Numbered from the stretch's first letter, positions 11,261 through 60,334 are shown. The stretch is 64,000 nt of DNA from Dehalococcoidia bacterium (GCA_034423195.1 DAOUIZ010000034.1:2023-66022), one strand, 5' to 3'. Program-made: numbers and translations. The notes: a model not told the origin generated them from the sequence alone.

Positions 11261-11404
11261 CTACCCGTGGGGCCGGCCCGGGGCTGGACGTGACGGAAAA
11301 AAATGGTTTGTGGGATAAATGGGACATTTCGCGCGTTTTGAGCGTGAAACCCGGAGAAATCCCTTCCCAAGAGCGCCATTCAGGGGTTAAGACGTGACGC
11401 GAAA

Positions 11405-45319: not shown

Positions 45320-46546
45320 ATGGACTCAGGCGATACAGCATGGATGCTGTCATCGACAGCGTTTGTCCTCTTTATGACTCTGCCGGGGCTGGCCCTGGTA
45401 TACGGGGGGCTGGTAGCCTCCAAGTCGGTCCTTTCCGTAGTCATCCAGTGTTTCGCGATCTCCGCCTTGGCCAGTGTGATCTGGCTGTCGGTGGGGTACA
45501 GCATGGCCTTCGGAGAGAGCCTGTTCTGGTTCATAGGCACCCTGGAAAACGCCTTCTTTCTAGGGATAGCGCCGGAGACAGTCCACCCAGAAACCCCCAA
45601 CCTGCCCGAGATGGTGTTCGTCATCTTCCAGATGACCTTCGCGATGATTGCTCCGGCGATAATTTCGGGCGCCTACGCGGAGCGGATGAAGTTTCCGGTG
45701 GCGCTGGTGTTCAGCGGGTTGTGGTCGCTGCTAGTGTATATTCCCATCTGCCACTGGGTGTGGGGCGGGGGCTGGCTGGACCAGATGGGGGCGATGGACT
45801 TTGCCGGAGGCCTGGTGCTGCACGCCAACGTGGGAGCGGCGGCGCTGGTGGCGTCGATAATCGTGGGCCGTCGCCTGGGGTTTCCCAACGAGATTGCGCC
45901 GCCCCACAACCCCGGGATGACGGCAGCGGGGACAGGGATGCTGTGGGTGGGGTGGTTCGGGTTCAATGGCGGAAGCCAGTTTGCCGCCGACGGCGAGGCC
46001 GGGATGGCGATTGCCGTGACCCACATTTCCGCGTCGGCCTCTGCCCTTACCTGGATGGTGCTGGAATGGGTAACGAGGCGGTACGCATCGCTGATCGGCA
46101 CGGTGACCGGCGTAATCGCCGGGCTGGCGGCGGTTACGCCGGCGTCGGGGTACATTGGGCCGATTGGTGGACTTATCTTGGGGTCGGCGGCCAGCCTGGT
46201 CTGTTTCTTCGCCGTTGGTATAATAAAGCGCAAGCTGAACATTGACGACGCACTGGATGTTTTCGCGGTGCATGGGCTGGGAGGTATCATAGGCGTGTTG
46301 CTGGTGACTTTCCTGGCATTGCCGATCTTCGGGGGCCAGGGTTATCCGGTGGAGGGGCGGGATGTCCACGTTCAGCTGGGGGTGCAGGCCCTGGGAGTCG
46401 CAGCCTCCATGGCATGGGCTGGGCTGTTCACCTTCATCATACTGAAGGTGCTGGACCGGGTCATGGGCGGGGCCCGGGTGGATGAGGAGGACGAGCTGGT
46501 GGGACTGGACCTGGCGGCTCATGGAGAACGGGGATACGACATTTAG
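45320..46546 (+). CDS. amt: Ammonium transporter (Amt family), copy 1
   Basis: MDSGDTAWMLSSTAFVLFMTLPGLALVYGG. Twin-His pore motifs DFAGGLVLHANVG and VFAVHGLGGIIG. GGAGG RBS. Confidence 0.9.
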   Translation: MDSGDTAWMLSSTAFVLFMTLPGLALVYGGLVASKSVLSVVIQCFAISALASVIWLSVGYSMAFGESLFWFIGTLENAFFLGIAPETVHPETPNLPEMVFVIFQMTFAMIAPAIISGAYAERMKFPVALVFSGLWSLLVYIPICHWVWGGGWLDQMGAMDFAGGLVLHANVGAAALVASIIVGRRLGFPNEIAPPHNPGMTAAGTGMLWVGWFGFNGGSQFAADGEAGMAIAVTHISASASALTWMVLEWVTRRYASLIGTVTGVIAGLAAVTPASGYIGPIGGLILGSAASLVCFFAVGIIKRKLNIDDALDVFAVHGLGGIIGVLLVTFLALPIFGGQGYPVEGRDVHVQLGVQALGVAASMAWAGLFTFIILKVLDRVMGGARVDEEDELVGLDLAAHGERGYDI

Positions 46547-46564: not shown

Positions 46565-46951
46565 ATGAATGGTCCGATTCGCGCGGTGAACACCAAACAG
46601 GAGGTCGAGCTATTGAACGTAGAGAAGTGGTGGGAACGGGGAAGTTTGGTTGTAGCCACCGAAGGGCGGGTGAACGGGCTGAATGCGGCCGAGTACCGGC
46701 GCATGCTGGACGATGCTCTGGAGGAGGACAGTTCGGCGGTAGTCCTGAACTTTGAGAGGCTTTCGTACATCAGCAGCGCGGGGCTGCGGGTGGTGCTGCA
46801 AGTGGCAAAAAGTCTGCGCCGACGCGGAGCGAAATTTGCCGCGTGCAACCTGGACGGTCCGGTGTTGGAAGTGTTCGTCACCGTTGGGTTTGACCGGATA
46901 ATCCCCCTGCACGGTTCGGTGGATTCCGCGGTGGCATCATTCTCGGAGTAG
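46565..46951 (+). CDS. STAS-domain protein (anti-sigma-factor antagonist, SpoIIAA/RsbV-like), copy 1
   Basis: LSYISSAGLRVVL phosphorylatable-serine loop. 18 nt downstream of amt. Confidence 0.8.
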   Translation: MNGPIRAVNTKQEVELLNVEKWWERGSLVVATEGRVNGLNAAEYRRMLDDALEEDSSAVVLNFERLSYISSAGLRVVLQVAKSLRRRGAKFAACNLDGPVLEVFVTVGFDRIIPLHGSVDSAVASFSE

Positions 46952-47084: not shown

Positions 47085-48248
47085 ATGCCCGATGGATTCA
47101 AGATTCTGGTAGTAGACGACGAGCCGGACCTGGAACCGCTGGTGCTGCAGCGGATGAGGAGACATATCCGGTCGGGGAAATACTCCTTCGTATTTGCCCG
47201 CAACGGCCTGGAAGCCCTGGACCTGCTTCAAGCCGAGGATGATATCGACATGGTGGTGTCGGACATCAACATGCCGCAGATGGACGGGCTGACTCTCCTG
47301 GAGCAGATCCCCAAGGTGGACCCGAATATCCGGTCAATCATCATCTCGGCCTACGGCGATATGAAGAACATCCGGACCGCCATGAACCGGGGCGCCTTCG
47401 ACTTCGTCACCAAGCCGTTGGACTTCGAGGACCTGCAGATAACCATTGACCGCACCCTGATGCACCTGACGGAGTGGCGGGATGCACTGTCGTCCCGGGA
47501 CAAGCTGGTGGCGCTGCAGAACGAGCTGGACATCGCCCAGAAGATGCAGCAGTCCATTCTGCCGACCCAGTTTCCCAAGGGAGCGGACTACGAGGTCTAC
47601 GCCAACATGGACCCGGCCCGCAACGTGGGCGGGGACTTCTATGACGTGATCCGGCTGGACAACGACTGCTTGGGGCTGGCCATTGCCGATGTTTCGGACA
47701 AGGGCGTGCCGGCGGCGTTGTTCATGATGTCCAGCCGCACCCTCCTGAAGGGATCAGCCATCGGCACCCCGGACCCGGGAGACGTGCTGGATGAGGTGAA
47801 CACGCTGCTGTGCGAGGACAACGAAGCGGAGATGTTCGTAACCCTGTTCTATGGTGTGTACGACCCCGCAACCGGCAAGTTGACCTATTCCAACGGCGGC
47901 CACAACACTCCGGTGGTCCTGCACCCGGACGGGAGTTCGGAGCTTCTGCCTCTGACCGGCGGGATTGCGCTGGGGGTGATGCCGGGAATGCCCTACGGCA
48001 CGGAGGAGATCGCTCTCCAGCCGGGGGACGCCCTGATCCTGTATACCGACGGCATCAGCGAGGCCATGAACGAGGTTAGTGAAGAGTTTGGAATGGACCG
48101 GCTGGCCGAGGTGCTGTCCCGGACGAAGACCAGGAACGCCAAGGAACTGAACGAGGAGATTTTCGCGGGTGTCAGGGAGTTTGTTGGCGACACGCCGCAA
48201 TCGGACGACATCACCTGCCTGACGATTTGCCGGAACGGGGCTGCGTAA
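47085..48248 (+). CDS. Response-regulator receiver fused to PP2C/SpoIIE-type serine phosphatase (RsbU-like)
   Basis: REC: ILVVDDEPD..VVSDINMPQMDG..FDFVTKP. PP2C: GGDFYDV...IADVSDKGVPAALFM...LYTDGISEA...DDITCL. Confidence 0.9.
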   Translation: MPDGFKILVVDDEPDLEPLVLQRMRRHIRSGKYSFVFARNGLEALDLLQAEDDIDMVVSDINMPQMDGLTLLEQIPKVDPNIRSIIISAYGDMKNIRTAMNRGAFDFVTKPLDFEDLQITIDRTLMHLTEWRDALSSRDKLVALQNELDIAQKMQQSILPTQFPKGADYEVYANMDPARNVGGDFYDVIRLDNDCLGLAIADVSDKGVPAALFMMSSRTLLKGSAIGTPDPGDVLDEVNTLLCEDNEAEMFVTLFYGVYDPATGKLTYSNGGHNTPVVLHPDGSSELLPLTGGIALGVMPGMPYGTEEIALQPGDALILYTDGISEAMNEVSEEFGMDRLAEVLSRTKTRNAKELNEEIFAGVREFVGDTPQSDDITCLTICRNGAA

Positions 48249-48667
48249 TGAGCTCGACGCTTGCGCTGAAGGTTGAAACCAGACTGGAGGAACTGCAGCG
48301 AATTGCTGCTGCGGTCGATGAATTGGCGGAGCAGGAATCGTGGCCGCCGGGGATGGCCGCACGGGTGAACCTGGTCATCGAGGAATTCGGAATCAACGTC
48401 ATGAACTACGGGTACGATGAAGGAGTCCACACCTTCGACATCAACCTGAGTTCCGATGACGGGTTGTTGACAATAGAGATAATCGACGACGGGAAGCAGT
48501 TCAATCCCCTGGAGGATGCTCCCGAACCCGATACGGAGTCGTCGATCGAAGACCGGCCAATCGGAGGGCTGGGGCTCTTTCTCGTGCGGACGATGACGGA
48601 AGACCTGCAATACCGCTGGGAAGATTCGAAGAACCATTCCACCATGGTGATGCGGATAAGCGAATGA
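48248..48667 (+). CDS. RsbW/SpoIIAB-like serine protein kinase (HATPase_c_2, anti-sigma-type)
   Basis: N-box VIEEFGINVMNYG, G1 IIDDGKQFNP, G2 GGLGLFLVRTM. The ATG overlaps the upstream stop (TAATG). Confidence 0.75.
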   Translation: MSSTLALKVETRLEELQRIAAAVDELAEQESWPPGMAARVNLVIEEFGINVMNYGYDEGVHTFDINLSSDDGLLTIEIIDDGKQFNPLEDAPEPDTESSIEDRPIGGLGLFLVRTMTEDLQYRWEDSKNHSTMVMRISE

Positions 48668-50001
48668 TCCCTCTCCGTACCCAGTTGTTGACGGCAATGC
48701 CCATGTCGCTGGTCCTGGGTGGGGCATTTCTGATCCTGTCGACAATGTTCGGCGGCCTGGGACAATTCATCCACGAAGCAGAGTCTCCCGTCGACCTCGC
48801 CCATCCGGTGGAACTGGCACAGTTCTTGGGTCAAGAAATGACCCCAACGGAGGGAGAAGCATCGGAAACCCGGGTCGGGGATGGGTCAAGTTCAGGAGGC
48901 ACCCACGGAGTGGGAAGCGACCGGGTTGTCTTTGGGCAATCGGCGGCGTTGACGGGACCGGCGGCGGAGCTGGGAACCAACATGAAGCTGGGGATAGAGG
49001 CCGCATTCCACGAGGTTAACGAAACAGGAGGCGTTCACGGGCGTCGCCTGGAGTTGACATCCCGGGACGACGCCTATGAACCGGAGGCAGCGATAGCGAA
49101 CACCCGCTACCTGATACGAGAGGAGCGGGTGTTTGCTTTGATCGGAGCCGTGGGGACCCCCACTTCGCGCTCCGCCACGCCGGTGGCCCTGGAAGCCGAG
49201 ATCCCGTATATCGCTCCCTTCACCGGCGCGGCTTTTTTGCGGGAAACGAAGTGGAAGAATATCGTGAACCTGCGGGCGTCGTACAACCAGGAAACCGAGG
49301 AAATGGTCGCCCAGCTGCACGACGGTTTGGGCTTGAACCGGATCGCGGTCCTCTACCAGGATGACTCGTTTGGAAGGGCCGGTTTCCACGGGGCAACCCG
49401 GGCGATGAACAAGCGGGACATAGAGCCGGTTTCGGTCGGCTTGTATCCGCGCAATACCCTGGCGGTCAAGACCGCTCTGTTGGACCTGAGGAGGGGAGAT
49501 CCGGAAGCGGTGATCCTGGTGGGGGCGTACAGGCCGGTATCCGCGCTGATCCAATGGGCTCGCCGCACTGGGCTTGATCCGGTCTTCATCAACATTTCCT
49601 TCGTGGGGAGCAACGCCCTGGCTCAGGAGCTGGGTCCGGCCGGGAAGGGGATATTTGTCACGCAGGTCGTTCCGTTCCCCTGGGATACATCGGTCCCCGT
49701 GGTCCGGGAATACCACAGTGCCCTGGAAACCTACTTCCCGGGGACTGAACCGGGGTTCGTATCCCTGGAAGGCTACCTGGCCGGACGGATGGCGATCGCG
49801 GGACTGGAGGCGTGCGAGACGGAGTTAACCAGGGAATGCTTCCTCCAGGCCCTCAGGGATGCCGAAGACGTGGACCTGGGGGGCTTTGGTTTGAGCTTCG
49901 GATTTGGTGACAACCAGGGCTCGGACAAGGTGTATCTCACTGCCATAGGGAGCGACGGGCAGTATCATCCCATCGAGACGCTGCGGGACCCAGTGCCATG
50001 A
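48664..50001 (+). CDS. LivK/AmiC-type (type I periplasmic binding fold) substrate-binding protein with N-terminal membrane anchor
   Basis: VVFGQSAALTGPAAELGTNMKLGIEAAFHEVNETGGVHGRRLEL..DDAYEP pattern. ATGA overlap with the kinase gene. Confidence 0.8.
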   Translation: MIPLRTQLLTAMPMSLVLGGAFLILSTMFGGLGQFIHEAESPVDLAHPVELAQFLGQEMTPTEGEASETRVGDGSSSGGTHGVGSDRVVFGQSAALTGPAAELGTNMKLGIEAAFHEVNETGGVHGRRLELTSRDDAYEPEAAIANTRYLIREERVFALIGAVGTPTSRSATPVALEAEIPYIAPFTGAAFLRETKWKNIVNLRASYNQETEEMVAQLHDGLGLNRIAVLYQDDSFGRAGFHGATRAMNKRDIEPVSVGLYPRNTLAVKTALLDLRRGDPEAVILVGAYRPVSALIQWARRTGLDPVFINISFVGSNALAQELGPAGKGIFVTQVVPFPWDTSVPVVREYHSALETYFPGTEPGFVSLEGYLAGRMAIAGLEACETELTRECFLQALRDAEDVDLGGFGLSFGFGDNQGSDKVYLTAIGSDGQYHPIETLRDPVP

Positions 50002-52445
50002 ACAGTGAAAACGATTTTCCGGGCAGCAAGTTGCTCAACCGGCTTCGCGGGCGCCTGAACAACTGGCGCCTCCAGGGCCGGGAACGGTACCGCCAGTGGC
50101 TGGAACAGGATCAACAACAACCCGCCACCGTGGAGACGGCTGTGTATGAGGATTTGCCGGAGAGTCTGGGAAGTCCTGAGCAGGGAGTACGGGAACACGC
50201 CGCACGGCTGACCGCGGAGCAGAGATCCGCCCAGGCGGCCGTCCTGGACGACCGAAGTCTGCTGCAACGGGTCCTGCACGCCAGGTTCCGGCTTTCCACC
50301 CAATTCTACATGGGTATCGGAGTGGCGGCCCTGCTGACCCTGGCCGCCAGTCTCGTTGGTTGGTTTTCCTTCGACCGGATGGGCCAAGCCCAGGACAGGG
50401 TGAACGAAAAGCACATTCCCGAAATGGCCGCCGCGTTCGAAATTGCCGAATACAGCAGTGCGCTGGTGGCGGCGGGGCCGCGCATGGCCACCGCCGAAAC
50501 GCCGGAAGATGTGGAGGTGATATACGACGGGATAGTGGCGTCACAGGGGGAGATCCAAAGCCAGTTGAACCTCCTGGGCGTGACGGATGTCGAAGATGAA
50601 CGCTTCCAGACGATCCTTGAACGCTCGGGGAATCTGATCAGCAACATGCAGGTGATTCGTACCCACAAGTTCGAACTGTTCCGGCAAGCGGAGGCCAGGG
50701 AGTCGCTGTCGGCTGACCTGGCGGAGATACGGGGCCGCCTGGATAACACGCTGGTGCCGGCTATCGACGAGCAGCTTTTCTATACCATTACGGGTTACCG
50801 GGACCTGGAGGCTGCACCAAGTGATTTCACGGCGCATTTTTCTGAGGATGAGTTGAGCCGCTACCGCTACCTGACGGAACTCCAGGCCGACGCCAACATC
50901 GCCACCGAGTTGCTGGCCAATGCCTTTACGGTGTCCGACCCGTCCTTCCTGGAACCCCTCCGTGAGCGGTTTGAAACGACCATCAACCGCATTGAACGCA
51001 ACTTGGGAGCCCTGGAAGGGTCGCCGGTCCATGAGGAGCTGGCGCCGGTGTTTGCCGATTTGGGCCGGTTCAGCCTGGGTGCGAGCAGCGAATTCAACCT
51101 GCTGGAGAGAGAGCTGCGCCTGGAGGAAGACCTGCGGGACGTTCTGTCGGAAAATCAGAGCGAAGCCGTCGCGCTGATCCAGGAAGTGGATAGCCTAGTT
51201 GTTGACGCAATGGACAGCGCCCAATCCGCAACAGTCGAATCCAGCATCGTCATACTGGAAGGCCGGACCCTTTTGCTGGCTATTACGGGCATCAGCATTG
51301 GAGGCGCGTTTCTGGTGGCCTGGCTCCTGGTGGGCAGGGTGCTGCTGAGGCGAATCCAGATGCTGTCGGACTGGATGCGCCGGATGGCGGGGGGAGAGCT
51401 GGACTCTCGGGTCGAGATTGGAGGCAATGACGAGGTTACCGACATGGCGGCAGCCCTGGAGGTCTTCCGGCGTCACGCGCTGGAGGTGCAGCGGCTCAAC
51501 CTTGTGGAGAGCCTGGCGGAAGAACTGCAGGGGAAGAACGACGAGCTTGAGTCGGTGCTCCATGACCTGCGGCGTGCCCAGGACCAGGTGGTGATGCAGC
51601 AAAAACTGGCCGCGCTGGGCGAGCTCACCGCCGGGGTGGCGCACGAGATCCGCAATCCGCTGAACTTCGTGAAGAACTTCTCCGAGTCATCCCAGGAGCT
51701 GCTGGATGAGCTGAGGGACGCGCTCAAGGAGTCGGCTGACGAACTCGACGACGAACAGCAGTCACTGATCAATGATATTACTGATGACCTGGACTCGAAC
51801 TTCGAGCGCATCCTGTCTCACGGGGAGCGGGCGAACCGGATCGTCACCGATATGCTGATGATGAGCCGGGGGGAGGCGGAATTCCGCAGCACCGCCATCA
51901 ACACCCTGTTGGATGAGCACGCCAGGCTGGCCTTCCACAGCGCCCGGGCGACGGACCCGAATTTCCAGCTTGACCTGAGGGATGACTTTGACGCCGAGGC
52001 CGGGGATATCCAGGCGATACCCCAGGACCTGGGCCGGGTCTTCCTGAACATGGTGACCAACGCCTGTTACGCCACGAACAAGAAGCGACTGGAACTGGAG
52101 GAGGCCGGAGAGACTTACTACCCGGCTCTGACGCTCGGCACCAAGCGGCAGGGGGACCGGGTCCTGGTCAGCATTCGGGACAATGGGCCCGGAATACCGG
52201 AGGAAGTGGTGGAGAAGATGTTCCTCCCCTTCTTCACGACCAAGCCGACGGACGAGGGAACGGGACTGGGCCTGGCGATTTCCAGCGACATCATCCGGGA
52301 GCACGGCGGCTTCATACAGGTAAACACCGAGCTCGGGGAATACACGGAGATGCTCATCGACCTCCCCGTGGAACCGGCCGCGGCCAGGCTGGAAGCGGAT
52401 GGGGATGGGGCCACCGTGGCGGTTTCGGAACCGGTGTCCGACTAA
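49998..52445 (+). CDS. Membrane sensor histidine kinase: 2 TM helices, about 300-aa extracytoplasmic domain, HAMP, coiled coil, HisKA, HATPase
   Basis: TM helices near aa 105 and 435. HAMP around MRRMAGGELDSRVEIGGNDEVTDMAAALEVF. H-box AHEIRNPLNF, N-box NMVTNACYAT, G1 RDNGPGI, G2 GTGLGLAIS. ATGA overlap with the binding-protein gene. Confidence 0.9.
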   Translation: MNSENDFPGSKLLNRLRGRLNNWRLQGRERYRQWLEQDQQQPATVETAVYEDLPESLGSPEQGVREHAARLTAEQRSAQAAVLDDRSLLQRVLHARFRLSTQFYMGIGVAALLTLAASLVGWFSFDRMGQAQDRVNEKHIPEMAAAFEIAEYSSALVAAGPRMATAETPEDVEVIYDGIVASQGEIQSQLNLLGVTDVEDERFQTILERSGNLISNMQVIRTHKFELFRQAEARESLSADLAEIRGRLDNTLVPAIDEQLFYTITGYRDLEAAPSDFTAHFSEDELSRYRYLTELQADANIATELLANAFTVSDPSFLEPLRERFETTINRIERNLGALEGSPVHEELAPVFADLGRFSLGASSEFNLLERELRLEEDLRDVLSENQSEAVALIQEVDSLVVDAMDSAQSATVESSIVILEGRTLLLAITGISIGGAFLVAWLLVGRVLLRRIQMLSDWMRRMAGGELDSRVEIGGNDEVTDMAAALEVFRRHALEVQRLNLVESLAEELQGKNDELESVLHDLRRAQDQVVMQQKLAALGELTAGVAHEIRNPLNFVKNFSESSQELLDELRDALKESADELDDEQQSLINDITDDLDSNFERILSHGERANRIVTDMLMMSRGEAEFRSTAINTLLDEHARLAFHSARATDPNFQLDLRDDFDAEAGDIQAIPQDLGRVFLNMVTNACYATNKKRLELEEAGETYYPALTLGTKRQGDRVLVSIRDNGPGIPEEVVEKMFLPFFTTKPTDEGTGLGLAISSDIIREHGGFIQVNTELGEYTEMLIDLPVEPAAARLEADGDGATVAVSEPVSD

Positions 52446-52553
52446 CTTCCCTCTTGGACCAGGGGCCTGGACCGGGGCTTGGGGCGCAGGCGATGTTTTC
52501 GGGGCGCTCCCGCACCTGGCGGGCAACGCGCCGGCGGGGAAGCGGAAACGGCC

Positions 52554-53492
52554 CTAGACGGGATATTCGAAGTAGGCGCTGGTGATGTGGAAGTGGAGGT
52601 CGCGACAACCCCGGTTTATCTGTTCGAGCAGTTCGTCCCGGTCGTCCCGGTCGGGCCATTCGTAATGGACCAGGGAAGCCAGTCGCCCGGCCAGCCGCCG
52701 GATGGCCTCCCCCTGCCTCGGGATGGGGCCGGTGCCGATGCGGGCAATCTGCTCTGCAATACCGTCGAGGGACCGTCCTACGGAGGATGGCAGGCTCGGG
52801 TCGGTAACGAGGAGGTCCAGGGCGTTCCCCGGCAGGACCTCGCCCCCATAACGGCGGTTGTGGGCTTCAAAGGCGTGACATAAATGCAGTAGGGTGGCCC
52901 AGTCCGCCCCGTCATTCATGGGGTCCGCGGAAATCTGGTTGAGCAGCAGCGCCGCCCATATCTGGGAGCGCTCGATGTAGCGGCCCAGCTGCATGAAGTT
53001 CCACCCATCGTCCCGGTACATGGTGGATACCGCCACGCCTACAAAAGTGTGTATCTCCGCTGCGGTCTCCTGGAAGAAACTTTCCGGGGACGTCTGCCAG
53101 ATGTCGAGGATGCCTATCTGGCGCATACGCAGGTAGGCCAGGTTCAGGCGGGTCCACATCTCGCCGCTGATGCAGTGGCGCATCTGGCGGGCATTTTCCC
53201 GGCCCTGGGAGAAGCAGCTCCATATCGAGTCGGGATTGGACAGATCGAAGGTGAGGTCGTCGGTCAGGGTGTAGGAATCGGCCAGAATGTAGTTATCCTC
53301 GCCGAACTCGAGGCTCCCGTGGGGAGGTTCCCGGTCCATGCTGCCGTAGATCCGGCTCCAGCCGAAGTAGATATCGCGGGCGGGCCGGTCCACCAGGGCT
53401 TCGACCTGGAACCGCAGCAAGTGGCACAGCAACTCGGCCCGCTCGAGGTAGCGGCCCATCCAGTACAGACCCTGGGCGCTTCTGGAGAGCAT
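52554..53492 (-). CDS. Alpha-E domain protein (DUF403)
   Basis: MLSRSAQGLYWMGRYLERAE is the hallmark N-terminus. About 310 aa, helical. Confidence 0.85.
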   Translation of the reverse strand: MLSRSAQGLYWMGRYLERAELLCHLLRFQVEALVDRPARDIYFGWSRIYGSMDREPPHGSLEFGEDNYILADSYTLTDDLTFDLSNPDSIWSCFSQGRENARQMRHCISGEMWTRLNLAYLRMRQIGILDIWQTSPESFFQETAAEIHTFVGVAVSTMYRDDGWNFMQLGRYIERSQIWAALLLNQISADPMNDGADWATLLHLCHAFEAHNRRYGGEVLPGNALDLLVTDPSLPSSVGRSLDGIAEQIARIGTGPIPRQGEAIRRLAGRLASLVHYEWPDRDDRDELLEQINRGCRDLHFHITSAYFEYPV

Positions 53493-53497
53493 GGAGG

Positions 53498-54928
53498 TCA
53501 GCCTTCCTCGTACTGTTCCGGCATCAGGACGAATTCGGGGTAGGCCTCGATGCCGAGTTCACCGGCGTCCTGCCCGAGATGTTCAACAACCGTGGAGACC
53601 CGGGCTCCGAGGGTCAGGTCAAAGCCCTTCCACAGGGCAAAGGAAACGGTGAAGGTGAAGGCCCCCACGGCACCGATTCCGGCCAGCTGCGCCACGATGT
53701 CGCCGCCCGCGACGATGCAAACGGCGAGGGTTCCCCAGATTCCGGCGAAGAGATGGGCGGGAATGGCTCCGACGACGTCGTCGATCTTCAGCACTTCGAG
53801 GAGCTTGATGCCGCCGGTGCAGACAACGCCGCCGATGGCCCCGATGATGATCGCCCAGTAGTGTTCGGTGATGTCGGGCCCGGCGGTTATGGAGACCAGT
53901 CCGGCGATGGCTCCGTTGAGCACGGCGATGAGGTCAATGCGGCCGAAGACCATGCGGGACAGGACCAGCGCGGCGATCACCCCGGCCGCCGCCGCCAGGT
54001 TGGTGTTGACCAGGACATTGGCCATGGCCACCACGTCCACGGCGCTCCCCAGGGCAAGCTGGGAACCGCCGTTGAACCCGAACCAGCCGAACCAGAGGAT
54101 GAATACTCCCAGGGTGACGGCGACCACGTTGGACGGCGTGGTAGGATTGGCGCCCCCGTCCCGGCGGAACTTTCCGAGGCGGGGCCCGACAATGATGGCG
54201 CCGGCCAGCGCGGCCCACCCCCCGGTGCTGTGTACGATGGTGGAGCCGGCGAAGTCCTGGAATCCCATCTTGTCCAGCCACCCGCCTCCCCAGGTCCAGG
54301 CGCCCACGACAGGGTAGATGAAGGCGGTCAGGAGGAGGGTAAAGAGGAAGAAGGGCCACATTTTGACCCGCTCGGCGAGGGTGCCGGACACGATGGAGGC
54401 GGTGGTGGCGACGAACACCATCTGGAAGAACCAGTCCGACATGGTGGAGTATCCGGACTCCAGCACTGTGCCAAGTCCGCTGGCGTCCCCATCGAGAAGG
54501 GCGAGTTCTTCGGGAGAGGAGCCGTAGAAGAAACGGAAGGACCCGATAATGCCCTGCACATCGACGTACATCAGGTTGTAGCCGATGATGAAGTAGGCCA
54601 GACCGGCGATGGAGTAGAGGCCGATGTTCTTGAGGCAGATCATGGAGGCGTTCTTGGTGCGGACTGAACCGGACTCCAGCATGGTGAACCCGGCGCACAT
54701 CCACATGACCATTGCGCCCCAAAGAAGGAACGAGAATGTGTTGAAGACGAAGCGAAGCTCCTCGTCGCTGGATGCGAAGGCCACGCCGGAGTGGCCGAAG
54801 AAGACTCCGACGGGCACCACTGCGGCGGCGAGGAGGAGAAGCCTGGCCCGTCGGGGCGCCAGCGCCAACCGGGTGAAAACCCCAAACGCGCGATGACTGT
54901 TCACGTTTATGCCCGGGGAATGCAGCAT
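53498..54928 (-). CDS. amt: Ammonium transporter (Amt family), copy 2, with N-terminal signal-peptide-like extension
   Basis: AGFTMLESGSVRTKN, DFAGSTIVHSTGGWAAL, AIPAHLFAGIWG. 5-nt gaps to both flanking genes. Confidence 0.9.
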   Translation of the reverse strand: MLHSPGINVNSHRAFGVFTRLALAPRRARLLLLAAAVVPVGVFFGHSGVAFASSDEELRFVFNTFSFLLWGAMVMWMCAGFTMLESGSVRTKNASMICLKNIGLYSIAGLAYFIIGYNLMYVDVQGIIGSFRFFYGSSPEELALLDGDASGLGTVLESGYSTMSDWFFQMVFVATTASIVSGTLAERVKMWPFFLFTLLLTAFIYPVVGAWTWGGGWLDKMGFQDFAGSTIVHSTGGWAALAGAIIVGPRLGKFRRDGGANPTTPSNVVAVTLGVFILWFGWFGFNGGSQLALGSAVDVVAMANVLVNTNLAAAAGVIAALVLSRMVFGRIDLIAVLNGAIAGLVSITAGPDITEHYWAIIIGAIGGVVCTGGIKLLEVLKIDDVVGAIPAHLFAGIWGTLAVCIVAGGDIVAQLAGIGAVGAFTFTVSFALWKGFDLTLGARVSTVVEHLGQDAGELGIEAYPEFVLMPEQYEEG

Positions 54929-54933
54929 ATCGG

Positions 54934-56367
54934 TCAGTCCTCCAGCACCCAGAAATCCTTGCCGCCGCCCCCTTGGCTGGAGTTGACGACCAGGCTGCCC
55001 CGTCGGAGCGCCACCCGGCAGAAGGCCCCCGGGACGATGCGGGTGCGCTGTCCCTGGAGAACGAAGGGGCGCAGGTCGACGTGGCGGGGCTCAAAGCGGC
55101 CCTCGATGAGACAAGGGGCCCGGGAGAGGGCCAGAACGGGCTGGGAGATGAAGTCGGCCGGGTCGGAGCGGATCTCCCTCGCGTAGTCTTCGCGCTCCCC
55201 GGCGGTTGAATGGGGGCCGATAAGCATCCCGTAACCCCCGGAGCCTCCGACGCGCTTGACGACCAGGTCCTGGAGATTGTCCAGGGTGTACTCAAGGCCC
55301 TCGGGCCGGCGGCAGAGGTGGGTCTCCACGTTGGAGAGGAGGGGTTCCTCGTTCAGGTAGTAGCGCACCATGTCGGGGACGAAGGCATAGACGCTTTTAT
55401 CATCGGCCACCCCGGTCCCGGGGGCGTTGGCCAGGGTGACGTTGCCGAGCTGGCAACAGCGGAGGAGCCCGGGGACGCCCAGCAGGGAGTCGGGCCGGAA
55501 GACCGTGGGGTCCAGGAAATCGTCGTCCACCCGGCGGTATATCAGGTCGACGCGCTTGAGTCCGTCGGTGGTGCGCATGAAGACGAAATCATCCCGGACC
55601 TGGAGGTCCTGTCCCTCCACCAATTCCGCTCCAAGTTCGTGGGCCAGGAAGACGTGCTCGTAGAAGGCGGAGTTGTAAACGCCGGGAGTGAGCAATGCGA
55701 TGGAGGGGTTGGACATTTCCCGGGGGGCCAGTTCCAAGAGGGTGTCGCGGAGTTCCTGTCCATAGTGCTCGACCTCCCGAACTCTCATGCTCCTGTACAG
55801 GCGGCGGAGACTGGCCTTGGCCGCCTTGCGGTTGGCCAGCATGTAGGACACGCCAGAGGGAACCCGGAGATTGTCCTCCAGGACGTGGAACCCGTCGTTG
55901 GTGCGTACGAGGTCGGTGCCGCAGATGGCTACCCACGTGCCGCATGGGGCCGAGAACCCCCGCATTTCCTCACGGAATTGAGGGCAGCCGTAGATGATGT
56001 CCGCCGGAATCACACCGTCGGCGAGGATGCGGGCGTCGTTGTAAATGTCCTGGAGGAAGAGGTTGAGGGCCTTCAGGCGTTGGGTGAGGCCCAGTTCCAG
56101 TTGCTTCCAATCGGATGCTGCCAGGAGCCTGGGAAGGCAGTCTATGGGGATGATCCTCTCTTCGGCTTCTTCATCGCCGTAGACCGTGAAGGTGATGCCT
56201 TCGTTGGAGAACGAGCGGTTGACCCGCTCGTGGATGCTGGTTAGCTCGGGGCCGGAGAGTTCAGAGAGGGTATCGTAGAGCTGCTGGCAATGTTCCCTGG
56301 GCGCGCCGTCCGGAAGGAACATTTCATCGTAGATTGCGGGGTCCAGCCCGTAGCCAACAAAATCCAC
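54934..56367 (-). CDS. Circularly permuted type 2 ATP-grasp protein (DUF404/DUF407 family)
   Basis: 477 aa. NAPGTGVADDKSVYAFVPDMVRYYLNEEPLLSNVETHLC and C-terminal GGGGKDFWVL match my recollection of this family. Paired with an alpha-E gene in the same operon. Confidence 0.8.
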   Translation of the reverse strand: MDFVGYGLDPAIYDEMFLPDGAPREHCQQLYDTLSELSGPELTSIHERVNRSFSNEGITFTVYGDEEAEERIIPIDCLPRLLAASDWKQLELGLTQRLKALNLFLQDIYNDARILADGVIPADIIYGCPQFREEMRGFSAPCGTWVAICGTDLVRTNDGFHVLEDNLRVPSGVSYMLANRKAAKASLRRLYRSMRVREVEHYGQELRDTLLELAPREMSNPSIALLTPGVYNSAFYEHVFLAHELGAELVEGQDLQVRDDFVFMRTTDGLKRVDLIYRRVDDDFLDPTVFRPDSLLGVPGLLRCCQLGNVTLANAPGTGVADDKSVYAFVPDMVRYYLNEEPLLSNVETHLCRRPEGLEYTLDNLQDLVVKRVGGSGGYGMLIGPHSTAGEREDYAREIRSDPADFISQPVLALSRAPCLIEGRFEPRHVDLRPFVLQGQRTRIVPGAFCRVALRRGSLVVNSSQGGGGKDFWVLED

Positions 56368-56611
56368 GGCAACAGTCCGTCAGTTTTCTCCGGTGTGACT
56401 ACCGGGGCGGGGTAACATGCTCTTTTCAGGAGGGTTTCCGAGGCTTGGTCCTCGCCCGGGATTCAGGTGCTCGTTCACCCCGGTTTCCTTCACTTGCCAG
56501 CGAGTTGCCAAGGACAGCATGGAGCGGGGCCGGAATCCGGGTCTGGTATCCCTGGCAACAGCTCCCGGGCCGGCGGCGCGGGAGGGCCGCCGGTTGCGCG
56601 ACAGGTCTGGA

Positions 56612-56950
56612 TCAACCGGAGAAGCTGGCAATGGCATCGGGCTGGGAACCCCAGACCGGGATGATCTTGTCGAACCCGCTGATTTCAAACACCTCGCGGA
56701 TGGGGTCGGAAAGGGAACAAACGGCGAGTTCGGTACTTTGACGCTGAAGGGCCTTGGTGGTCATGAGAATGACCCGGAGCCCGGCGCTGCTGATGTAAGA
56801 AAGATCCGCCAGGTCCAGTACCACGCCCCTGTCGTCGGTGCTGATAGCCTCGCTGAGGTCTCCCTGGAACTCCTGAGCGTTGGAGCCGTCGAGACGCCCC
56901 TGGGGCTTGGCGATCAGTATCCCATTTTCCCGAACGATTCCTAGTTCCAT
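56612..56950 (-). CDS. STAS-domain protein (anti-sigma-factor antagonist-like), copy 2
   Basis: LSYISSAGLRVILM loop identical in core to copy 1. Start moved to ATG 56950, preceded by AAGGAG. Confidence 0.8.
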   Translation of the reverse strand: MELGIVRENGILIAKPQGRLDGSNAQEFQGDLSEAISTDDRGVVLDLADLSYISSAGLRVILMTTKALQRQSTELAVCSLSDPIREVFEISGFDKIIPVWGSQPDAIASFSG

Positions 56951-57032
56951 TACCAATCTCCTTAGGAGCGTCTTTAGCGCAAGTTGAAGGGAAGCGGGGA
57001 GCCCCGGCAAAGGTGAAGGCGGATAGCGGAAC

Positions 57033-57092
57033 GGGCCTCCCGATAACTCTACTATGGGGTTTGACTTGGTTTTAGTGGGGCCTCCCGATAAC
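57033..57092. repeat. Perfect 15-nt direct repeat GGGCCTCCCGATAAC x 2 (57033-57047, 57078-57092) upstream of STAS copy 2
   Basis: Read directly. 45-nt period, 83-142 nt upstream of the STAS2 start. Confidence 0.9.
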
Positions 57093-57688
57093 GTAACGGC
57101 CACACCTAGAGTTAGATTATACCCTACAATCCATGGTTGAGAGCAATATATAAGATAGACAGTTACAGCCAGGCATTCTCCCTACCGAATGCAGGGGACA
57201 TAGTCTTTCCGGTGGTCCACATCTCGTTGAAGCCTGAATGAGGGTTCCTGGGCTAGACGCGTCCATGTTGAGACTGATGAACGGGGAAAGGTGAGACTGG
57301 ACTGGGAAGACGCAGAGCCATGCTACACGGACGCAATCTACAAGTCAACGACTTGCCTGAGAGAAGCGCGTAATTCATATCCTAAGGTGGAGCTCGTTAT
57401 TTGGAGAGAATTACCGGGACTTCTTCGTGGGATGATCCTCTTGATCCGTAAATCTAGATCATCCTATAGAACTCGCATTCAGGCTACCCAAGGATTCGGG
57501 TGCAGGTCACCTCACCTGAGGCAGCGAACGCGAACGGGACTTGCAGGAACTACTCTGGGGCTTTCGATTTTCGGGGAATCGCCGCATAATTCCCGTGCAG
57601 GGGGCTCTACCCCTCACTGCATCCGGGCGCTGCGTTTGCATGAGTGAAAAGTATGCCCGTCAACTTTGGGGGAGTTTCGGACTTAGCC

Positions 57689-59524
57689 ATGCTCAGGCTC
57701 CTCAGCGTCACCAACTTCGCCACAATAGAGCAGCTCGAGGTTGAGTTGGGACCCGGGTTCAGCGTGCTGACCGGTGAGACGGGGGCTGGCAAGTCGATCA
57801 TCGTGGATGCGCTGAGCCTTCTGCTCGGAGGACGGGCCGATCTCGACACGGTACGTTCCGGTGCACGCCAGTCCAGGGTAGAAGGCATCTTCCTGCTTAG
57901 CCTGGACATCTCTCGGAAGATCAAAGCTGCCCTGAATGACTATGGAATTGACGTTGACGAACAGGAGTTAATTCTCGCCCGGGAAATTAACCTGGACGGC
58001 CGCAACACCTGCCGGGTGAACGGTCGAATCGTACCTCTCAGGGTATTGAGCACGCTGGCCCAACACCTGGCGGACATCCATGGACAAAACCAGCATCTGT
58101 CCCTTCTCCGCGCACGGGAGCACATGGACATCCTGGACAGGTATGCCGGGTTGTTGCGACTCCGCTCCGAGGTGGCAGAGGCGGTCCACCAGCTAACGCG
58201 AGTGCGCCAGGAACTGGACCGCCTGCAGAAGGATGGCGCAGAGCGTGCTCGACAAGTGGATTTTCTGAGATATCAAGTGGATGAGATCAGCTCCGCAAAT
58301 CTGCGTCCCGGTGAAGATGACGACCTGGCGCTGGAGAGAGACCGGGTGGCCAACGCAGAGCGAATCATCACACTGTCAGACCACGCCTACGGAGCGTTAT
58401 ATGATAGCTTTGACCGCCACGATTCGGTGATAGACCTGATAGGGCAGGTGTCTGCAGACCTTTCCCAATTGGGGAGACTGGACCCCACATTGAGCCAGAA
58501 CCTTGAGTCCGTAGATGCCATCATGTCCCAGGTGGAAGAATTGGCGCGCGCACTGCGCAGCTATCGTGACGGCATCGAATACAGCCCGGAACGTCTTCAG
58601 GAGATTGAGGGCCGGTTGGACTTGATCAACAGTCTAAAAAGGAAGTACGGCGGTTCCATCGGAGAAATCCTGGCCTTCGGCGAGACGGCCTCCCAGGATC
58701 TGCAAAATCTGGATCACACCGAAGAGCGTGTGGAGGGATTGGAGTCACGGGAGACGGACCTCGAAAGGGAGGTCGGCATCCTTGCGGGGCAACTCTCCGA
58801 AGCCCGCCAACAGGCCGCCACGCGTTTGGCTGAAGCGATAGAAGAGGAGGTCGCCGGGCTGGCTTTGGGACACGCCCAGGTGTTAGTGGACATTCGTCAA
58901 GCAGAGTCGAAGGATGGTGTGCCGGTTGGGACCGTGGGTACGGTACCGGATTCAACACCCGGTTCGGGTGGGCAATCTGAAAGGTGGCTCGCGTTCAACG
59001 GGACGGGCATAGACTTAGTGGAATTCTTGATCTCGCTGAACCCGGGCGAACCGCCACGGCCGCTTTCCAGGATCGCTTCTGGAGGAGAAACGTCCAGGCT
59101 GATGCTTGCCATTAAGACCATCCTGTCGACGGCCGACGAGATACCGATGCTCGTGTTCGACGAAATCGATGCGGGGATAGGTGGTCGAGTCGGGAGTGTC
59201 CTGGGTCAGAAACTGTGGGGCCTGTCCGAGACCCATCAGGTGCTATGCGTAACTCACCTCCCCCAAATAGCCTCCTACGCAGACCACCACAGCAAGGTTG
59301 CGAAACTTGCCTCAGATGGAAGGACCGTGACATCGGTGGAGGACCTCAATGGTGAGACCAGGGTGAGGGAACTGAGCCAGATGCTGGGCTCAGATAGCGG
59401 CGCAACCCGCACCAACGCCTTGGAGATGCTAAAACAGGCGGAAAGCTGGAAGGAGAGCAAGAGGGCCTCCCCCGTCCAGGAAACTCTTCGGTGGTCTCAG
59501 GAGACCGTACAGGATCCGGGTTAG
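57689..59524 (+). CDS. recN: DNA repair protein RecN
   Basis: MLRLLSVTNFATIEQLEV..LTGETGAGKS Walker A, long coiled coil, SGGETSRLMLAIK signature, MLVFDEIDAGIGG Walker B. Start moved to ATG 57689. Confidence 0.9.
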   Translation: MLRLLSVTNFATIEQLEVELGPGFSVLTGETGAGKSIIVDALSLLLGGRADLDTVRSGARQSRVEGIFLLSLDISRKIKAALNDYGIDVDEQELILAREINLDGRNTCRVNGRIVPLRVLSTLAQHLADIHGQNQHLSLLRAREHMDILDRYAGLLRLRSEVAEAVHQLTRVRQELDRLQKDGAERARQVDFLRYQVDEISSANLRPGEDDDLALERDRVANAERIITLSDHAYGALYDSFDRHDSVIDLIGQVSADLSQLGRLDPTLSQNLESVDAIMSQVEELARALRSYRDGIEYSPERLQEIEGRLDLINSLKRKYGGSIGEILAFGETASQDLQNLDHTEERVEGLESRETDLEREVGILAGQLSEARQQAATRLAEAIEEEVAGLALGHAQVLVDIRQAESKDGVPVGTVGTVPDSTPGSGGQSERWLAFNGTGIDLVEFLISLNPGEPPRPLSRIASGGETSRLMLAIKTILSTADEIPMLVFDEIDAGIGGRVGSVLGQKLWGLSETHQVLCVTHLPQIASYADHHSKVAKLASDGRTVTSVEDLNGETRVRELSQMLGSDSGATRTNALEMLKQAESWKESKRASPVQETLRWSQETVQDPG

Positions 59525-59883: not shown

Positions 59884-59972
59884 CGGAGGGAGTGGGATTC
59901 GAACCCACGATCCCGGTTTCCCAGGATAAGCGCTTAGCAGGCGCCCGCACTAGACCACTATGCGATCCCTCC
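59884..59972 (-). tRNA. tRNA-Ser (GCU), long variable arm, CCA not encoded
   Basis: Acceptor GGAGGGA/TCCCTCC, anticodon loop CTGCTAA, T-arm GTGGG-TTCGAAT-CCCAC, discriminator G. Confidence 0.9.
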
Positions 59973-60258: not shown

Positions 60259-60334
60259 TGGTGGAGATAGGGGGGCTCGAACCCCCAACCTCGGCATTGC
60301 GAACGCCGCGCTCTCCCAGTTGAGCTATATCCCC
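60259..60334 (-). tRNA. tRNA-Ala (CGC), CCA encoded
   Basis: Acceptor GGGGATA/TATCTCC with the G3:U70 identity pair, anticodon loop TTCGCAA, T-arm GGGGG-TTCGAGC-CCCCC. Confidence 0.9.

Follow-up and report, generated by a model that had tools for sequence, protein, structure and literature searches.

Circularly permuted (CP) ATP-grasp and Alpha-E proteins, with a transglutaminase-like peptidase and with or without Anbu (COG2308/COG2307/COG1305), form a system described by Iyer, Abhiman, Burroughs and Aravind in 2009 (as cited in PMC5666114 and PMC3495828). The system occurs in very many bacteria, including mycobacteria and pseudomonads, and its role has been only predicted since 2009: it would ligate or tag peptides, and the transglutaminase-like peptidase would undo the tagging (PMC3495828). 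No experimental substrate was found in the searchable literature. According to published work, operons of the system belong to nitrogen-limitation regulons in Pseudomonas putida and Burkholderia cenocepacia. In P. putida, PP_2685 (Anbu) and PP_2688 (CP ATP-grasp) are about 16–22-fold up on nitrate versus ammonium (PMC8050072), and Anbu is up-regulated in nitrogen-limited cells (PMC5666114). In a B. cenocepacia ntrC mutant, BCAM1233 and BCAM1234 (DUF404/407 and DUF403 genes) are down 8–9-fold (PMC5491218). A CP_ATPgrasp gene of Bradyrhizobium has a predicted RpoN site (PMC13207237), and in marine metagenomes the domains of the system co-vary with urea-metabolism domains (PMC3597751). An apparent match to 'DUF403' in a HEPN paper was false, the domain there being DUF4037. 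Here we describe a 64,000-nucleotide stretch of DNA from a Dehalococcoidia bacterium (GCA_034423195.1 DAOUIZ010000034.1:2023-66022; hereafter the window), in which a gene for an ammonium transporter, Amt2, lies between the genes for the CP ATP-grasp protein (CPgrasp) and Alpha-E. No prior report of an amt gene in this position was found in the searchable literature.

The list of open reading frames (ORFs) together with Pfam assignments reproduced exactly the minus-strand order given in a preliminary description of this DNA, namely STAS2, 244 nt, CPgrasp, 5 nt, Amt2, 5 nt and Alpha-E (Table 1). Both of the 5-nt junctions that it had reported have a Shine-Dalgarno-like motif within the last codons of the preceding gene (ctGGAGGActgaccgatATG and GAGGAAGGctgacctccATG), an arrangement compatible with translational coupling, and we infer that CPgrasp, Amt2 and Alpha-E are co-transcribed.

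Loci for comparison were gathered by an Amt2 scan with one genome per species, an ATP-grasp metagenome scan and twelve context look-ups, and were annotated by tblastn and with profiles from the window proteins. All of them were baited with Amt2 or CPgrasp, and most are metagenome-assembled genomes (MAGs) or metagenome contigs. We call loci close when their CPgrasp is at least 66% identical to that of the window and distant when the identity is 49–55%. The order CPgrasp-Amt-Alpha-E was present in 9 of the 18 lineages of the close clade (the window and L170, L001, L006, L083, L166, L167, L168, L169 and L171–L174). The wedged amt that the preliminary description had singled out, with uniqueness to one genome as its own ground for doubt, is thus conserved. 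L170 is a 96% relative of the window with the same layout, L006 is a Dehalococcoidia MAG, and L171–L174 represent one protein on at least 24 contigs. Nine lineages have CPgrasp directly followed by Alpha-E (L084, L085, L086, L087/L088, L089, L090, L163, L164/L165 and L175–L177). Among database homologues picked solely for their long contigs, the wedge was found in 6 of 9. The junction between Amt and Alpha-E measures 4–6 nt in the window, L170, L001, L166, L167, L169 and L171, and in L006 the end of the Amt gene (11317) overlaps the Alpha-E ATG at 11307. The wedge stays while Alpha-E falls to 56–72% identity. At the distant loci (n = 72), amt and the signalling genes described below were found in none, and Alpha-E was present in 69, immediately downstream of CPgrasp, whereas in the window amt separates the two.

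Since the layout recurs in independent assemblies, neither misassembly nor chance accounts for it. The interruption by amt is an inherited state of a whole subclade and is not peculiar to the window genome. In neighbour-joining trees of CPgrasp and Amt2, built without support values, embedded and non-embedded loci are intermixed, and the simplest history would be that amt was inserted long ago and was later lost or relocated several times. Conservation of the wedged amt indicates a functional link of the transporter to the CPgrasp/Alpha-E pair.

The wedge is part of a larger operon in several relatives. L167 and L171–L174 carry nine closely spaced genes on the same strand, in the order STAS, REC-PP2C phosphatase, RsbW-type kinase, periplasmic binding protein (PBP), histidine kinase (HK), CPgrasp, Amt, Alpha-E and transglutaminase; L166 has an identical operon minus the transglutaminase. 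The STAS proteins heading the operons of L166, L167 and L171 are 59–62% identical to STAS2 of the window and 42–46% identical to STAS1, the second STAS protein encoded there. The preliminary description had proposed that STAS2 links the unit to the partner-switching kinase and phosphatase of the convergent operon, and this is strongly supported by the STAS2-type gene at the head of the colinear operon in L166, L167 and L171–L174. Rearranged versions also occur. In L089, CPgrasp-Alpha-E is convergent with HK, PBP, RsbW, REC-PP2C, STAS and Amt2; L002 has Alpha-E, RsbW, STAS, REC-PP2C, PBP, HK and Amt2, all in one direction; in L011, CPgrasp is divergent from REC-PP2C, RsbW, PBP and HK, with Amt2 4.6 kb downstream. 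Smaller sets lacking ATP-grasp and Alpha-E within 10 kb are Amt2-STAS in L009 (10001–11800) and L019 (10001–11740) and RsbW-Amt2-STAS in L017 (9459–11797); such minimal sets are a hint that the transporter itself may be what the STAS switch is tied to. The window itself is a rearranged derivative, with two convergent units, an extra Amt1-STAS1 pair and a lost transglutaminase.

The absence of a transglutaminase from the window, already noted in the preliminary description, was borne out, as tblastn with three Pfam-verified transglutaminases from relatives gave no match in the whole 64 kb. Its standing as a trait of the amt variant was not: in L167, L168 and L171–L174 the transglutaminase gene directly follows Alpha-E with amt still embedded, and the idea that the two genes are mutually exclusive is refuted by the same loci. 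Transglutaminase was present in 3 of the 8 scorable embedded lineages and missing in 5, and, where a distant locus reached 12 kb or more (n = 34), a Bact_transglu_N plus Transglut_core protein was encoded in 32 cases. We regard the absence of the transglutaminase from the window as a lineage-specific loss and not as a property of the variant. As for Anbu, all genes between 45320 and 56950 of the window belong to other families, although no search aimed at Anbu was made. Distant loci (L096, L097, L104, L105, L107, L109, L136 and others) often have a second, divergent CPgrasp-Alpha-E pair (31–37% identity), which lies some 4.5 kb downstream and precedes the transglutaminase.

Table 1. Features of the minus-strand unit and of the convergent plus-strand operon in the window
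Feature	Coordinates	Strand	Description
Amt1	45320-46546	plus	AmtB-type, 408 aa; PF00909 E=5e-107; TIGR00836 407 bits vs cutoff 343
STAS1	46565-46951	plus	Pfam STAS E=2.6e-17; 45% identical to STAS2; 18 nt after Amt1
REC-PP2C (SpoIIE) phosphatase	47085-48248	plus	Response_reg E=4e-25; SpoIIE E=2e-54
RsbW/SpoIIAB-type serine kinase, anti-sigma-like	48227-48667	plus	146 aa; HATPase_c_2 E=2e-23; weak RsbW match
Periplasmic binding protein (PBP), LivJ/amide type	48664-50001	plus	Peripla_BP_6 E=5e-56
Sensor histidine kinase (HK)	49998-52445	plus	HAMP, HisKA, HATPase_c (Pfam); converges on Alpha-E
Alpha-E	52554-53492	minus	312 aa; PF04168 E=2.7e-64, full length
Amt2	53498-54928	minus	476 aa; PF00909 E=6e-96
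CP ATP-grasp (CPgrasp)	54934-56367	minus	477 aa, GTG start; PF14403 E=1e-153; PF04174 E=4e-138
STAS2-CPgrasp gap	56368-56611	minus	244 nt
STAS2	56612-56950	minus	112 aa, from ATG after AAGGAG; PF01740 E=1.7e-20

CPgrasp aligned end to end (residues 12–477) with PDB entry 3n6x, a 'putative glutathionylspermidine synthase' (E=4e-164), and more than 120 CPgrasp protein clusters at 77–96% identity were retrieved, almost all of 477 aa. Amt-linked and amt-less CPgrasp proteins are both 77–81% identical to that of the window and are interleaved in the neighbour-joining tree; the presence of the transporter therefore very likely makes no difference to the ligase chemistry. Neither an Amt-CPgrasp nor an Amt-Alpha-E fusion was present among the 360 matches listed. 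Across 56 homologues of Alpha-E, R14, R18 and E174 do not vary, and at least 90% also keep E17 and R175. An AlphaFold2 model of the protein was all-helical, with 14 helices and a pLDDT of 86.6. Alpha-E had no sequence match in the PDB, and its top fold match, the nitrate-sensing antiterminator NasR, was not significant (E=0.2, TM 0.28), so the attempt to read a function from this confident model was given up. An experimental structure of the Alpha-E fold is apparently lacking so far. As a separate observation, CPgrasp of L001 (4296–5962) is split into ORFs of 300 and 248 aa with Amt and Alpha-E intact; the split could stem from a frameshift, from decay into a pseudogene or from an error in long reads.

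Amt2 scored 322 bits against PF00909 (cutoff 23), with the domain starting at residue 67 and 13 residues remaining after it. Its N-terminus is hydrophobic and signal-like, ending in AFA, in agreement with the signal-peptide-like extension noted earlier, and its C-terminal tail is acidic. With 512.1 bits against TIGR03644, the marine subtype, Amt2 narrowly missed the cutoff of 514. Amt2 and Amt1 both retain every one of the pore residues, which include the Phe gate and the twin His: F107, W148, D160, H168, F215, S219 and H318, numbered as in E. coli AmtB. The reference sequences of E. coli AmtB, E. coli GlnK and B. subtilis SpoIIAA used in the comparisons were entered by hand. Amt1 shares 33% identity with Amt2 and 44% with E. 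coli AmtB. The closest PDB entries to Amt2 were Sd-Amt1 (8qj3, E=1e-67) and Ks-Amt5 (6eu6, E=3e-57), with E. coli AmtB at E about 1e-26. Ammonium receptors are defined by the N1/N2 signature QX6EX15NX2D[F/T]X54-60TX2[S/T] (PMC11152129). This signature is absent from Amt2, which has C for Q and L for D (C..E..N..LY), and from all 120 homologues listed, and Pfam assigned PF00909 alone, with no fused cytoplasmic transducer domain. Because the receptor signature is absent, we read Amt2 as a probable working ammonium transporter of the marine subtype, and its assignment as an ammonium receptor was rejected on this ground. The acidic tail was also considered as a specific target of the ligase; this candidate was rejected, as the tail is common to the entire marine subtype, independent of gene context.

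A tblastn search with E. coli GlnK (PII) gave no match in the window, nor at the loci of the clade. Within 10 kb of close Amt2 homologues (L003–L021, versus L022–L082), glnK was found nowhere except in L075, whereas it is directly adjacent in about half of the distant Amt loci. Amt2-type proteins at 66–78% identity come from MAGs labelled Dehalococcoidia, Gamma-/Alphaproteobacteria, Nitrospirales, Acidimicrobiia and Nitrospinota (L003–L021), and this spread over at least six phyla or classes means either that the marine subtype is unusually well conserved or that it has been passed horizontally between symbionts living in the same sponge. Some MAG names, several in number, resemble what we take to be published names of sponge-symbiont bins. 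The nearest metagenomic contigs, MKWU, LXNI and LXNJ, belong to Mediterranean sponge metagenomes (PMC5099237, PMC5649159).

The plus-strand operon from Amt1 to HK converges on the minus-strand unit (Table 1). STAS2 is a single-domain protein of the anti-sigma-antagonist type (NCBIfam ant_ant_sig, 80 bits versus a cutoff of 53). The motif YISSAGLR is shared by STAS1, STAS2 and nine orthologues and aligns with FMDSSGLG, the phospho-Ser motif of SpoIIAA, with the equivalent of the phosphorylatable Ser58 kept. The phosphatase is closest in the PDB to RssB-like 3eq2 of P. aeruginosa. STAS, the RsbW-type kinase and the PP2C phosphatase, by their domains, would form a complete partner switch. No sigma factor was found in the window cluster or among the called genes of L166, L167 and L171, and a target encoded elsewhere is possible. 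The PBP, whose closest PDB entry is the 'probable Leu/Ile/Val-binding protein' 4kv7 (E=1e-72), has in its translation an N-terminal hydrophobic segment that we read as a membrane anchor, and its gene overlaps that of HK by 4 nt. HK has two transmembrane segments and a TorS-like helical periplasmic domain with weak matches to TorS_sensor_domain and 4HB_MCP, and it is encoded next to the PBP in all loci carrying the cassette. Alignment of HK to the NCBIfam TorS-like model extends over residues 107–796, and since this covers periplasmic and cytoplasmic parts, it suggests that HK is a kinase dependent on the binding protein.

We also searched the surroundings of the unit for regulatory signals. 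The window's only strict GG-N10-GC sigma-54-like match, TGGCAACTCGCTGGCA (56495–56510, minus strand), lies in the gap between STAS2 and CPgrasp, 128–143 nt upstream of the CPgrasp start. At least one such match occurred in 38 of 100 shuffles, and the element was absent from L001 and all other relatives; a sigma-54 promoter before CPgrasp was accordingly dropped as a candidate. No Rfam riboswitch or small RNA family was found in the 244-nt gap, the gathering-level scan of the window yielding five tRNAs only, and a terminator and promoter scan of 52300–57400 gave counts not above those of shuffles. CPgrasp, Alpha-E and STAS2 had no match among the PADLOC defence models, and an anti-phage defence reading of the cluster was rejected on this basis. 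Upstream of STAS2, a 626-aa SMC_N/AAA_23 ATPase (57291–59524, plus strand) matches the PADLOC model mad3 of the MADS defence system (E=6e-34). A 118-aa ORF without any family match precedes and overlaps it, so that two defence genes may stand as a pair immediately upstream of STAS2, and tRNA genes lie nearby (59884–59972 and 60262–60334, both minus strand).

Peptide or branched-chain amino-acid/amide ABC transporters flank several operons of the clade (L168 3617–9896, L171 2184–3663, L175 16706–21434 and L163 16466–20584), and amidohydrolases are also frequent among the neighbours of clade CPgrasp operons. The ABC transporters would fit an organic-nitrogen context.

As the best explanation of these observations, we propose that the CPgrasp, Amt2 and Alpha-E unit belongs to a conserved gene set of sponge-associated bacteria that serves nitrogen acquisition and response. 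On balance we lean toward a nitrogen-scavenging operon, in which a marine-subtype Amt is co-expressed with the ligase pair under partner-switch control. The LivJ-type PBP would bind a periplasmic nitrogen compound and modulate HK as TorT does TorS, HK would set the activity of the REC-PP2C phosphatase, and phosphatase and RsbW-like kinase together would set the phosphorylation state of STAS. Because the set encodes no sigma factor or DNA-binding protein, the switch would act by protein-protein contact on products of its own operon, either the transporter or the ligase pair. Amt2 would be a working channel made in fixed proportion with the CPgrasp/Alpha-E amidoligase, a member of the nitrogen-starvation regulon in model bacteria, so that the link would consist in co-expression of two nitrogen-limitation functions, with a ligase chemistry that has no need of Amt2. 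The gene identities, the junctions, the recurring layouts, the intact pore residues and the phosphorylatable Ser kept in STAS were observed; what we infer for this scheme is the sequence of signalling steps, what the switch acts on, and that nitrogen limitation is the inducer in these organisms.

Several points weigh against a nitrogen-scavenging operon of this kind. The sigma-54-like site before CPgrasp is neither significant nor conserved. Plain co-regulation would not call for placing amt between CPgrasp and Alpha-E, two genes that in all other cases are neighbours; the wedge may have arisen by historical accident, or it may be a sign of a closer physical relationship. About 15 of 20 close Amt2 homologues in species-representative genomes do not have these partners within 10 kb, and from the side of the transporter the link is thus optional. 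The use of Amt2 and CPgrasp as bait biases the apparent exclusiveness of the signalling cassette, and the trees are neighbour-joining trees that carry no support values.

A closer physical relationship could take the form of CPgrasp/Alpha-E, with or without transglutaminase, and STAS/RsbW/PP2C acting on or at the channel, either as a docked ammonium-consuming amidoligase or as PII-independent control of uptake in symbionts of an ammonium-rich host, and we entertain this only tentatively. A direct coupling of substrates, in which ammonia or ammonium from Amt2 would serve as the nucleophile on an acyl-phosphate formed by CPgrasp/Alpha-E docked at the cytoplasmic face of the channel, giving by ATP-dependent amidation an ammonia trap beside glutamine synthetase, seems to us rather doubtful. 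Amidation of this kind, like a modification of the transporter by the ligase pair, had been conjectured in the preliminary description. Direct coupling would account for a transporter gene placed between those of the ligase subunits with 4–6-nt junctions and kept there across lineages, and it is in keeping with the response of the ligase system to nitrogen limitation in the literature and with the naming of the nearest solved relative, 3n6x, after a carboxylate-amine ligase. ATP-grasp enzymes can use ammonia, carbamoyl-phosphate synthetase being a precedent. However, the amt-less CPgrasp proteins, equally similar and interleaved with the amt-linked ones, indicate no amt-specific active site, which weakens substrate delivery by Amt2; amt is linked to none of the 72 distant CPgrasp systems, the transporter stands elsewhere in the cluster in L089, L002 and L011, and no Amt fusion with either ligase protein is among the 360 matches listed. 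Control of uptake could instead mean that STAS/RsbW/PP2C takes the role of GlnK in gating the marine-subtype Amt, perhaps with a reversible ATP-grasp tag removed by the transglutaminase-like peptidase. The rarity of glnK near close Amt2 loci (only L075, versus about half of the distant Amt loci), the CPgrasp-free sets of L009, L019 and L017, the position of STAS1 after Amt1 in the window and the nine-gene operon without a sigma factor all point that way. Regulation of transporters by STAS proteins is known, MlaB being one case (PMC7367683), and the transglutaminase-like peptidase is predicted to strip tags added by ATP-grasp (PMC3495828). The Amt2 tail is acidic and conserved, but it is acidic throughout the marine subtype in any context; the transglutaminase is missing in 5 of the 8 scorable embedded lineages, and elsewhere ligase systems that have no amt are the rule. 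We consider this replacement of PII unlikely.

Two further explanations appear highly improbable to us. If Amt2 were an ammonium receptor (transceptor), informing the ligase pair or the switch of ammonium outside the cell and not importing nitrogen, its best PDB matches would be explained, as Sd-Amt1 and Ks-Amt5 are sensors and rank far above E. coli AmtB; yet neither Amt2 nor the 120 listed homologues have the N1/N2 signature, there is no fused transducer domain, and all transport-pore residues are intact. Neutral hitch-hiking, by which amt was inserted once by chance and persists with no functional relation, would suit a clade of which half is free of the insertion and an Amt2 family whose homologues mostly stand alone. 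It sits poorly with a wedge that is kept while Alpha-E diverges to 56–72% identity, that occurs in a Dehalococcoidia MAG and in other lineages, and whose junctions remain tight; moreover, L089, L002 and L011 were rearranged independently, with Amt2 still in the cluster.

The conserved amt-embedded operon with its sensor cassette is genomic evidence, beside transcriptomic hints, that the CP ATP-grasp/Alpha-E system serves nitrogen scavenging. A compact cassette of three to nine genes makes this old question experimentally tractable. A docked ammonium-consuming amidoligase, if true, would provide the first substrate for a system uncharacterised since 2009, and PII-independent control of ammonium uptake by STAS would be a possibility in sponge symbionts, for which ammonium supplied by the host is a key currency.

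The locus shares with the CP ATP-grasp/Alpha-E/transglutaminase system both core proteins, the downstream transglutaminase of close relatives and the nitrogen-limitation response known from model bacteria. It differs in that Amt splits the core pair and in that a five-gene cassette (STAS, REC-PP2C, RsbW, PBP and HK) is attached, additions found in none of the 72 ordinary systems. As in AmtB-GlnK, a small cytoplasmic signalling protein is encoded beside the transporter (Amt1-STAS1 in the window; Amt2-STAS in L009, L017, L019 and L089). However, the neighbour in the window is a STAS protein under Ser phosphorylation and not PII, and glnK is absent within 10 kb. Partner switches fed by two-component systems are known from RsbK-RsbY-RsbV-RsbW of Bacillus cereus and HptB-HsbR-HsbA of Pseudomonas aeruginosa. 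The cassette resembles them in having a REC-PP2C phosphatase, an RsbW-type kinase and a STAS protein with a conserved phospho-Ser under a sensor kinase; unlike them, it lies in an operon devoid of a sigma factor, its HK is paired with a LivJ-type PBP, and its apparent outputs are a transporter and a ligase pair. TorT-TorS is a sensor kinase dependent on a periplasmic binding protein, and here too a PBP gene overlaps that of a kinase with a helical periplasmic domain, although the PBP is of another family (Peripla_BP_6) and the kinase is not a hybrid. Ks-Amt5 and Sd-Amt1 (PMC5764959, PMC11152129) are the closest solved structures to Amt2 and likewise represent Amt modules tied to signalling, whereas Amt2 has neither the N1/N2 signature nor a fused transducer and is linked to signalling through its operon. 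The amt-embedded layout is a new form of a known, functionally uncharacterised system.

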